Assembly (NCBI RefSeq): GCF_045037415.1 | Contig: NZ_CP173438.1 | Direction: 5' to 3' (one strand) | Origin: Escherichia coli | Lineage (GTDB): Bacteria; Pseudomonadota; Gammaproteobacteria; Enterobacterales; Enterobacteriaceae | Length of the DNA: 64,000 bases | Shown here: piece by piece, positions 28,201-31,200 of the stretch | How the letters are laid out: every line of letters starts with the position of its first letter | Position numbering within the stretch: position 1 is the first letter of the stretch | Made by a program: the position numbers

Positions 28201-31200
28201 CTTTTTTTCGCCGCCAGCGCAAGTCCTACAGCCACAGGGAAACCATGCCCCAGTGCTCCGGTATTCAGTTCAATACCTGGCGTTTTTTGCCGAACCGGAT
28301 GGCCGGGTAAGTGTGAATTTGGCTGCTGATAAGTGGAAAGCCATTCCAGTGGGAAGAATCCTGCTTCCGCCAGCACGCAGTAGTAACATCCAACAGCATG
28401 GCCTTTTGACTGAATGTATATATCCCGGTCATCGTCGTGAAGGCGATCCGGTGCGACATTGAGAATACGAAAATAGAGTGCGGTCAGTAATTCAACCTGA
28501 GAGAGATCGGCCCCGGTGTGTCCACCTGCCGGGCTATTGGCATTTAAGCGCACGATATGGCGGCGTACCGCCCGCGCTTTACGCTCAAGGGTCTGGATAT
28601 CATAGCTATAGGGATTCATTTAATACCTCTGAATTTATTTTCAACATGGAATATTTATTCCACCGGGGACTAAAAAAACCAGAAATCCCAGGGCGTTGCG
28701 CGGCAAGACTTACGCTGCTGCATCATACTCAGGAACATTCTGCCTCCTTACACCGTCAGTTACATGTCCGGGTAATCATCAGTTGACCTGATATCATCTT
28801 GAATATATATTCAATAATGATTCTTTATTCAATTATGCCGCCTGTTTTTTATTTTTGTCCATCGCTGATTTTAAGGATTGGTTAAAGTTAGAACTCCATC
28901 ACACTTAACTGTCTTCTTTTTTCGCGTATGATAAAAGCCTCTAAGATAAGGGCGGTACGTTAATGATTTACGGGGAAATATATGGCTAAGCAGGATGAAC
29001 AGCGGCTACTGGTGAAGATCGCCACTCTTTACTATCTTGAGGGGCGAAAACAGTCTGACATCGCCCAACTTCTCTCGCTTTCTCAGTCATTTATATCCAG
29101 AGCGCTAACCCGTTGCCAGAAAGAAGGCGTGGTTAAAATCAGCGTTGTCCAGCCGTCAAATATCTTTCTCAATCTGGAAAAAGGCATTGAAGAGCGTTAC
29201 GGCATTAAACAAGCGATTGTTGTCGATACCGAAGATGATGCCAGTGATCACACCATTAAACGCGCCATCGGCTCTGCCGCCGCGCACTATCTGGAAACGC
29301 GTTTAAGGCCAAAAGATTTCATTGGCGTCTCTTCGTGGAGTTCTACGATTCGCGCGATGGTCGATGAAGTTCACGCCCAAAACTTAAAAGCCAGCGGCGT
29401 TATTCAGCTGCTGGGCGGCGTGGGGCCAAACGGCAATGTGCAGGCAACTATTTTGACACAGACCCTGGCCCAGCATCTGAATTGCGAAGCCTGGTTGCTT
29501 CCTTCTCAAAGCATTGAAGGTTCGGTAGAAGAGAAAAAACGCCTGGTGGCAAGCCAGGATGTGGCTGACGTTATCGCCAGATTTGACGACGTCGATATCG
29601 CCATTGTCGGCATCGGTATCCTTGAACCCTCGCAGTTGCTAAAAACCTCGGGCAACTATTATCACGAGGATATGTTACAGGTACTAGCGGATCGCGGTGC
29701 TGTGGGCGATATCTGCCTGCACTACTACGATAAACATGGTCAGCCCGTGTTGCAGGACGATGAAGATCCAGTGATTGGTATGGCACTGGATAAAATCAAA
29801 AAATGCCCGAATGTGGTGGCACTGGCGGGCGGCAAAGACAAAGTTGCCGCCATCAAAGGCGCCATGCAGGGTGGTTATATTGATGTTTTGATCACTGATT
29901 TCCCCACCGCCAGAATGCTGATTGCGGATTAATCCTCTCCTCCCTTTCTTCTGCCCGCCTTTGCGAAAAAATCTTCTCGCAAAGGTGATTGCTTAAAAAG
30001 CCTTTAATATCAATAAACTGAAAGGATTCAACAATCCTGTTTCTCGAGGCTTTCTCACCCTGTCACCACGCTTCTAAGTGTGATAGCCAGCACATTTGAT
30101 GATTTTTTCTCTAGCTCAGGAAGAATAATCTGGCTAAGGTATAAATAAATAATCAGTATCGAATATATATTCATGCCTTAACACAAAATGTCACAGCAGG
30201 GCCTGATGAAGTAATAACGTGACCATGAGGAACGCCTCATCTCCTTCCACGCCAGGATGCAATGTGACTCAGGAGACTACCTATGTTTGCAGGAAATAAA
30301 GAGTTCGTTATTGCGTTGGATGAGGGTACCACCAATGCAAAAGCCATCGCACTTGATGGTTTCGGTAACGTGGTGGCGAAGTTTTCTCAACCACTGGCTA
30401 TTCAGACGCCACGTGAAGGCTGGGTTGAGCAATCCGGGGAAGCGTTAATCTCTGCCTCGCTTGATGTTATTGCCCAGGCCATCAACCACGTGGGGGCAGA
30501 AAATGTAGCGGCTCTGGCTATCAGTAATCAGCGTGAAACGGCTATCGGCTGGTATCGTCAGAGTGGAAAACCACTCAATGCGGCGATTACCTGGCAATGC
30601 ACGCGCAGTGCCGAGTTTTGTGAAACACTGCGTCGCGAGGGCAAAGAGCAGCAAATTAAAACGACTACGGGTCTTCCTATCGCCCCGCTATTTTCCGCGT
30701 CCAAGATGCGTTGGCTACTGGAATCTACACCTGAGGGTGTGCAACTTGCCGACCAGGGTGAAATTTGTCTCGGCACCATTGATGCCTGGTTGCTATGGAA
30801 CTTGACTGCTGGCGATTCATTTTGCTGCGACTACTCTAACGCCGCGCGAACTCAATTACTTAACCTGAAAACAGGCGAGTGGGATGAGGAAATGCTGGCG
30901 TTGTTTCACATTCCACGCGCTGCATTGCCAGAAATTAAACCTTCCAGTGGCCTGTTCGGTTATACCCGAGGGCTTAAAACAATTCCGGATGGTATTCCCG
31001 TCATGGCGATGGTGGGCGATTCTCACGCCGCTCTTTTTGGTCATGCGTTGGGAGAAGCGGGATGTGTGAAAGCGACCTATGGGACCGGTTCTTCCGTCAT
31101 GGCCCCCGTCAACTCTGCTCAGTGTGATATCGCCACACTTGCCACAACCATTGCCTGGCATGATGGCGAAAATATTATTTACGGTCTGGAAGGAAATATC

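Follow-up and report, generated by a model that had tools for sequence, protein, structure and literature searches.

The subject of this report is a group of palindromic sequences in a 64-kb window of Escherichia coli DNA (64,000 nucleotides of contig NZ_CP173438.1, the whole stretch analyzed here), where they occupy the control regions of a ten-gene island (26861-37809) that encodes a regulator of the SorC/DeoR subfamily. Taken together, sequence and comparative data make it highly probable that the palindromes are operator half-sites of this regulator and that they control the island, the D-apiose catabolic cluster of E. coli STc131/STc14. The regulator is favored as the cognate factor because the motif follows its gene through 82 loci and several gene orders, because the half-sites and their spacing equal OL of DeoR, the best-scoring characterized family, because a palindrome joined by a degenerate second site mirrors the tetramer-bound operators of DeoR and CggR, and because the base-contacting R39 of DeoR corresponds to an invariant R40. 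Repression combined with autoregulation fits this arrangement, since predicted promoters put the sites over the transcription starts. The original prediction had named a repressor shared by both transcription units, in the simplest case the neighboring SorC/DeoR-type regulator, and this proposal draws support from every computational test that was run.

A perfect 16-bp palindrome, TTGAATATATATTCAA (TTGAA-TATATA-TTCAA), lies at 28799-28814 between the divergent transketolase and regulator genes, and a near-identical one, cGAATATATATTCa, at 30160-30173 upstream of the kinase operon; both had been pointed out before and are borne out by the sequence. A third palindrome that had been placed at 28649-28662, near the transketolase start, is also present, one base away from those coordinates, at 28648-28661. 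Each of these sites is one half of a 32-bp composite, namely A (28630-28661), B (28800-28831), or C (30142-30173), and each composite consists of two 14-mers with a 4-bp gap and an 18-bp period, a strong palindrome being accompanied by a weaker partner (Table 1). The original prediction covered one half of each composite; the weak partners, and the likeness to arginine repressor sites considered below, are added here. Read toward the adjacent promoter, composites B (TGAATAAAGAATCA-TTAT-TGAATATATATTCA) and C (TAAATAAATAATCA-GTAT-CGAATATATATTCA) are identical at 28 of 32 positions, and in both of them the weak site is promoter-proximal.

Within the window the 12-mer GAATATATATTC occurs exactly twice, each time in an island control region, and when up to two mismatches are allowed there are six matches against 1.86 expected, four of them in the two island control regions. 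A position weight matrix (PWM) built from the six sites found, at a score of at least 14.5, no match in the window besides those six. The statistics of single regions are only moderately convincing. AT makes up 58-62% of the intergenic regions, dinucleotide shuffling of the two gives a palindrome of 14 bp or longer in 3.5% of cases and any shared 12-mer in 2%, and B1 overlaps a -10-like TATATT, all of which would suit chance AT-rich palindromes, generic promoter or UP-like elements, or nucleation of H-NS, Fis, or IHF on an acquired island. Within-window statistics were dropped as sole evidence in view of the 3.5% figure, and because they are modest, the case rests on comparative data and on a joint shuffle test, in which an identical palindromic 12-mer appeared in both regions in none of 20,000 shuffles. 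The GC content of the island (44-53%) is not strongly deviant, the 14-bp blocks are invariant while their flanks diverge, and the exact 18-bp pairing recurs before the transcription units of rearranged clusters; an origin by chance or through nucleoid-associated proteins is accordingly given almost no credence.

The comparative data come from a search with a regulator profile against genomes taken one per species, which returned 80 loci. Thirty of these (group A) carry a regulator 83-100% identical to that of the window and share the E. coli gene order, and 50 (group B) carry a regulator 69-74% identical in a cluster that has kept the transketolase and kinase genes but has another ABC (ATP-binding cassette) transporter and another order. 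In the group A footprint alignment (28 syntenic loci, 29 sequences), B1 is identical in 28 of the 29 sequences and has a single substitution in Mixta, amid variable flanks; the conserved core is 14 bp long, as the outermost T/A of the 16-mer varies among orthologs. GAATATTTATTCC within A2 is invariant in all 29, and B2 is conserved in both the group A and the group B alignments. Among the group A loci holding the C interval, C2 retains GAATATATATTC in every one, and C1 is kept as ATAAATAATCA, with ATATATAATCA in two. In the 58 loci with divergent transketolase and regulator genes, A1 lies at offset +11/+12 from the start codon in most, and the site at the A2 position at +29 to +31 in nearly all (+43/+44 in two Franconibacter loci), and composite A in nearly all loci occupies a fixed position 10-42 nt ahead of the start codon of the transketolase. 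The conservation in orthologous clusters that had been set as a check on the prediction is thus found, the 14-mers being invariant or nearly so while flanking sequence varies.

Beyond the window, the PWM at the same threshold gave 323 matches in 82 other loci from Enterobacterales, Vibrio, and Agrobacterium (1.16 Mb), 306 of them in the 19% that is non-coding, counts that are not independent, since the matrix was built on six sites of this very window and the loci are in many cases related to one another. A partner at exactly ±18 bp accompanies 185 of 211 strong sites, with essentially no other spacing, and 139 distinct composites give the consensus tGAATAtATATTCa-nnnn-tGAtTnwwwATTCA. In group B, the motif stands before tktN, before the regulator gene, and before the transporter operon, whatever their arrangement, and it precedes cluster transcription units in Vibrio salinus, in the reference Pectobacterium carotovorum cluster, and on an Erwinia plasmid. 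On the Agrobacterium tumefaciens plasmid pQ15_94_1 (L083) it is found at 5233, 5592, and 8974, beside a regulator that is only 42% identical. The inverted repeats noted ahead of both transcription units in E. coli thus recur in rearranged orthologous clusters. That the motif persists when gene order changes, and from one class of Proteobacteria to another, would be difficult to account for with a factor not encoded alongside the cluster, and the 18-bp pairing together with the recurrence in rearranged clusters likewise requires a sequence-specific factor that the cluster encodes.

Alternatively, the strong sites could be ARG boxes, to which the arginine repressor ArgR binds. The ARG-box core consensus, reportedly TGAAT-WWWW-ATTCA in the work of Charlier in 1992 and of Maas in 1994, is matched perfectly by TGAATATATATTCA (TGAAT-N4-ATTCA). 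The positions most conserved in ARG boxes are G4, A6, T7, A12, and T13 (PMC6640053). The 14-bp core is identical, and ARG boxes likewise occur in tandem pairs. ArgR, itself an unrelated hexameric protein, is expected in all of the hosts from Enterobacterales and Vibrio. In every architecture, that of Agrobacterium included, the motif varies in step with the SorC-type regulator cluster, with regard to its presence as well as its position; alphaproteobacteria, to which Agrobacterium belongs, are not known to have ArgR/AhrC-type repressors. ArgR operators comprise two 18-bp boxes 2-3 bp apart in a 39-bp motif, 20-21 bp from center to center, while the spacing here is 18 bp in the 185 of 211 cases given above and 20-21 bp in none. 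The sites moreover flank transketolase, kinase, ABC-transporter, and regulator genes of sugar catabolism, not of arginine metabolism, and the weak partners are poor ARG boxes. That these sites serve as ArgR operators is very improbable. Since the strong half-operators are perfect ARG-box cores, it is conceivable that ArgR and the apiose regulator compete for or share sites in ST131 and ST1193. A second, structural reading is that the invariant 18-bp spacing, set against about 22 bp in DeoR, implies a geometry of tetramer and DNA that would be new to the SorC family. We regard these readings as speculative, with a small chance of being right. Were the first one true, ArgR might impose arginine-dependent control on apiose catabolism, and the apiose regulator might bind genuine ARG boxes and so perturb the arginine regulon of pandemic clones.

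Assignment of the sites to the island regulator agrees with what its sequence reveals. Residues 63-314 match the PF04198 sugar-binding domain, which has a NagB-like fold (Pfam, E 6.5e-62), and residues 14-52 give weak generic helix-turn-helix (HTH) matches only. RefSeq names the protein a sugar-binding transcriptional regulator. Its best NCBIfam match is the B. subtilis-type DeoR (NF053881, E 2e-59), at a score of 201 against a curated cut-off of 420 bits, while the LsrR model scores 136 against a cut-off of 486; full-length alignments were obtained with the PDB entries of SorC (2w48, 2.8e-34), DeoR (8r7y), and LsrR (3e-28). These scores make the regulator a relative of DeoR within the family, not its ortholog. 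Groups A and B have an invariant recognition helix, LSQSF(I/V)SRAL, in common, which accounts for their use of the same motif. S39 and R40, invariant in all aligned relatives, correspond to S38-R39 of DeoR and place the domain in the DeoR HTH subtype. Residues 56-312 also match PDB entry 2r5f ("Transcriptional regulator, putative"; E 4e-93), a solved effector domain of a close relative that is usable as a model of the inducer pocket.

Predicted promoters, with start sites placed 7-8 nt past the -10 element, bear on the polarity of control. The transketolase hexamers are conserved in orthologs as TTGTCCA and ATTATG, and in group B an equivalent TAGACA/TATCTT pair abuts the composite; the transketolase start would fall near 28825, with composite B at approximately -6 to +26. 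For the regulator gene, two promoters are predicted. The -35 region of the distal one is conserved as GTTGAC in most group A loci, and its -10 element lies inside B1, which suggests autoregulation; in the proximal one CACTTAA and GCGTATGAT are conserved. Transcription of this gene is predicted to start near 28818 and/or 28939. The CRP-like site between the divergent genes retains a nearly invariant ATCACAC in group A and ATCACA in group B, and its center is at 28895.5, about -70 with respect to the transketolase start and about -42 with respect to the proximal regulator promoter, both of them predicted; the site could serve both divergent promoters. Upstream of the kinase operon, the CRP site is one of only two matches in the window with at most one mismatch, and its block GTGTGATTnnCAGCACAATTGAT is conserved amid variable flanks. 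The -10 element predicted for this operon, conserved as CTGGCTAAGGTA in group A loci holding the interval, has no -35 match, a lack that is usual at class I CRP promoters; with a start predicted near 30147-30148, composite C would span about -6 to +26 of this promoter and the CRP site would lie near -61.5. CRP-type sites upstream of both control regions would imply catabolite control of the apiose cluster.

These positions are also the ground on which a further alternative is judged, namely that the regulator does bind the sites but acts mainly as an activator, or has a dual role, with the real promoters downstream of them. Klebsiella pneumoniae SorC is reported to be both activator and repressor, so that family membership does not settle repressor polarity, and one homolog of the present regulator is named "Sor operon activator"; the starts, moreover, are predicted ones, and composites B and C are followed by long 5' regions of 110-180 bp before the start codons. 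Conserved -35 and -10 hexamers nevertheless stand directly upstream of the composites in groups A and B, any promoter situated downstream of composite C would have the conserved CRP site over 110 bp away on its upstream side, and composite A adjoins a ribosome-binding site, which is no position for an activator. The closest characterized relatives, DeoR, CggR, and LsrR, are repressors released by sugar phosphates. An activating or dual role is considered improbable.

Under repression by the island regulator, the control of the cluster may be pictured as follows. By analogy with the DeoR and CggR structures, each 14-mer would be bound by one DNA-binding domain (DBD) dimer of a tetramer that is a dimer of dimers. 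When inducer is lacking, the tetramer would block RNA polymerase: composite B would cover the start of the divergent transketolase promoter, the overlap of B1 with the -10 element toward the regulator gene would allow autoregulation, composite C would cover the start of the kinase/ABC/SDR operon promoter (SDR, short-chain dehydrogenase/reductase), and composite A, next to the transketolase ribosome-binding site, may serve as an auxiliary operator or a roadblock. As sugar phosphates are the typical effectors in the SorC family, the inducer is most likely a phosphorylated pathway intermediate, for example D-apulose 4-phosphate, whose binding in the PF04198 domain would release the DNA. Activation would then come from cAMP-CRP bound at the conserved upstream sites.

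Table 1. Operator sites, genes, and predicted promoter elements of the apiose island, in positions of the 64-kb window.
Feature	Position	Strand	Remarks
A1, TGAATTTATTTTCA	28630-28643	none	10 nt upstream of the transketolase start codon, abutting the Shine-Dalgarno sequence; PWM score 16.9
A2, GGAATATTTATTCC	28648-28661	none	other half of composite A, 18 bp from A1
B1, strong palindrome, TGAATATATATTCA	28800-28813	none	core of the 16-mer at 28799-28814; PWM score 22.6
B2, weak partner, TGATTCTTTATTCA	28818-28831	none	18 bp from B1; its right half, ATTCA(A), is kept and repeats the palindrome 3' half in direct orientation
C1, weak partner, TAAATAAATAATCA	30142-30155	none	promoter-proximal half of composite C; PWM score 16.2
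C2, strong site, CGAATATATATTCA	30160-30173	none	PWM score 20.0
Predicted sigma-70 promoter, transketolase	28832-28861	minus	-35 TGGACA (28861-28856), 18-bp spacer, -10 CATAAT (28837-28832); 10/12 in consensus scan
Predicted distal promoter, regulator gene	28783-28811	plus	-35 TTGACC, 17-bp spacer, -10 TATATT (28806-28811); 10/12
Predicted proximal promoter, regulator gene	28905-28932	plus	-35 TTAACT, 16-bp spacer, -10 TATGAT
CRP-like site, TTAGAactccaTCACA	28888-28903	none	8/10 of consensus, one perfect half
CRP site, TGTGAtagccaGCACA	30079-30094	none	9/10 of consensus, upstream of the kinase operon
Predicted -10 TAAGGT, kinase operon	30135-30140	plus	
Split transketolase, aptA/aptB-type	26861-28619	minus	N-terminal part 27789-28619, C-terminal part 26861-27796; transcribed divergently from the regulator gene
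Regulator gene, SorC/DeoR subfamily, 316 aa	28982-29932	plus	N-terminal HTH and C-terminal sugar-binding domain
Operon of FGGY kinase (aplK-type), substrate-binding protein, DUF2291 protein, ABC ATPase, permease, and two SDR oxidoreductases	30283-37809	plus	

Some other modes of control were considered and set aside. DNA looping between composites A and B is not claimed because the distances between them (60, 70, 77, 81, 86-92, 97, 104-106, 137, 143, and 151-157 bp in 58 loci) show no helical phasing. An RNA element or attenuator in the transketolase leader was likewise rejected, the minus-strand fold of 28826-28620 being no better than shuffles (z = -1.05), and Rfam gave no match in 28500-30400 at E values up to 1. 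The same leader holds, between composites B and A, a 22-codon upstream open reading frame (ORF; 28670-28738, minus strand) that encodes MFLSMMQQRKSCRATPWDFWFF* and has a strong Shine-Dalgarno sequence (AAGGAGG-CAGA-ATG). Its frame and an MFLS...WFF* pattern are present in about 20 of 26 group A loci, and the interval is missing in group B; in about five loci the ORF is broken, by a frameshift (L005/L006), an early stop (L019), or other changes (L023 and L024), and loci without the frame still conserve the nucleotides of its 3' end, TTCTGGTTTTTTTAG. The kinase gene has a 5' region (30174-30282) with the conserved blocks ATGTCACA (30189-30196), CCAGGA(C/T)G, and, at the ribosome-binding site, AATGTGACTCAGGAG. 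This region also contains a short GAGGGA...TCCCTC hairpin that, judged by eye, appears to co-vary; RNAalifold gave no consensus structure for this region.

The alignments yielded three further observations on the clusters themselves. In group B (L032-L077) an additional conserved tandem element, CTTGTTATCTATTCA-nnnn-TGAATAAAAATAAC, lies about 20-55 nt before the regulator start and looks like a fourth, autoregulatory composite; at that position the alignment of group A, E. coli included, has no counterpart. Genomes labeled Citrobacter amalonaticus carry either a group A (L004/L008) or a group B (L047) cluster, with regulators about 74% identical, an identical recognition helix, and the same operator motif, and cross-regulation is expected wherever clusters of the two groups share one cell. 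In Enterobacter sp. 10-1 and Raoultella terrigena (L018 and L022) a GC-rich insertion of about 100 bp, TACCCTGAATTATTCG...GGCCGGCGCGG..., separates the proximal regulator promoter from the regulator start and may be a small mobile or REP-like element.

The ten genes of the island are flanked by entD and by hokE/ybdK, and the order of those in the plus-strand operon is syntenic in 30 loci. The stretch covering the first four genes matches 630 of 5426 complete E. coli genomes. At the right border, ahead of ybdK, two hokE type I toxin genes (approximately 37919-38071 and 38421-38573) are accompanied by a frameshifted fragment. An erythritol or other polyol identity was considered on account of the FGGY kinase and the SDRs and was dropped when a search gave nothing, D-apiose being adopted in the light of the published cluster. 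The genes (aptA/aptB split transketolase, aplK kinase, and ABC transporter) are the same as those of the D-apiose catabolic cluster of P. carotovorum, which Carter and colleagues reportedly described in 2018. The locus downstream of entD is itself described as a D-apiose degradation cluster with aptA/aptB, aplK, and an ABC transporter in a 2026 paper, according to which ST131 and ST1193 strains grow on D-apiose, a plant-cell-wall sugar, and two oxidoreductases are proposed to substitute for the apiose isomerase in Escherichia (PMC13001218). Position between entD and hokE/ybdK and the match to this cluster identify the island. An SDR-variant apiose-type cluster was also encountered on the conjugative Agrobacterium plasmid (L083, 748-10769), where a split transketolase, an FGGY kinase, a SorC-type regulator, and two SDRs are accompanied by an ABC transporter in divergent orientation.

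The word "regulator" is absent from the text of that paper (PMC13001218), and a literature search combining apiose with SorC, repressor, aptA, or aplK returned nothing else of relevance; the operators and the regulatory model therefore appear, as far as can be told from the literature searched, to be additions to the published apiose clusters. In metabolism, the D-apiose cluster is a signature trait of the pandemic extraintestinal pathogenic E. coli STc131 and STc14 clones, and no description of how it is switched on was found in that literature. The operator model makes its regulation testable by specifying a 32-bp composite, three locations, a promoter and CRP geometry, and a candidate effector class, and the motif is usable for finding apiose regulons in other Proteobacteria. 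Very probably the sequences form a DeoR-type operator that belongs to a SorC-family repressor, a switch of a kind that is ordinary in sugar operons, although this instance was not found described. The design, a local repressor combined with CRP, is a textbook one that leaves the general view of sugar-operon control unchanged, and its relevance is practical, not conceptual. As a natural variant of the DeoR-type operator with 18-bp spacing, it also provides material for structural work on SorC-family tetramers.

Among characterized systems, Bacillus subtilis DeoR offers the closest comparison. According to a structural study of 2024, its dra-nupC-pdp operator, ATTGAACAAAATTTCAATTACCAATTTACATATGTTCAA (ATTGAACAAAATTTCAAT...TTACATATGTTCAA), contains the crystallographically defined palindrome of the left half-operator OL, TTGAA-CAAAAT-TTCAA, bound by one DBD dimer, and a degenerate right half-operator, TTACA...TTCAA, in which the 3' half is kept as a direct repeat; the tetramer binds the whole operator, neither half is bound alone, and R39 contacts G4 and T14 of the half-site (PMC11229326). 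The half-sites and spacing, TTGAA-N6-TTCAA, are the same as at 28799-28814 in E. coli, and the succession of a strong palindrome and a degenerate site, with the 3' half TTCAA preserved in direct repeat, has its equivalent in the tGAtTnwwwATTCA partner of the 185 of 211 sites. Both proteins combine an HTH with PF04198 and align over their full length, the arginine that contacts bases in DeoR is retained, and by analogy a tetramer would be the expected binding unit. Several of the points that emerge from this comparison weigh against the proposed assignment, as do the dual role of SorC, the perfect ARG-box core, and the non-independence of the motif counts described above. The score against the DeoR model falls well below the cut-off for orthology, and R34, which contacts a spacer base in DeoR, is replaced by glutamine. 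The centers of the 14-mers are 18 bp apart in place of about 22 bp, so that the DeoR tetramer model cannot be transferred unchanged. DeoR further differs in that its operator lies at -60 to -21, upstream of the promoter core, and not at the approximately -6 to +26 predicted here, in that its pathway is that of deoxyribonucleosides, the effector in a D-apiose cluster being presumably a different one, and in that DBD identity is only about 32%.

B. subtilis CggR, also of the SorC family, binds as a tetramer to a tandem two-half gapA operator located downstream of the start (+32 to +77), from which a sugar phosphate releases it; it differs in having a DBD of the winged-helix subtype and GC-rich repeats, CGGGAC-N-GTC, unrelated in sequence to those described here. 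E. coli LsrR, which governs the autoinducer-2 (AI-2) regulon, and K. pneumoniae SorC have other target genes but are enterobacterial members of the same subfamily with the same divergent arrangement of regulator and operon, and the effector of LsrR is a phosphorylated sugar derivative.

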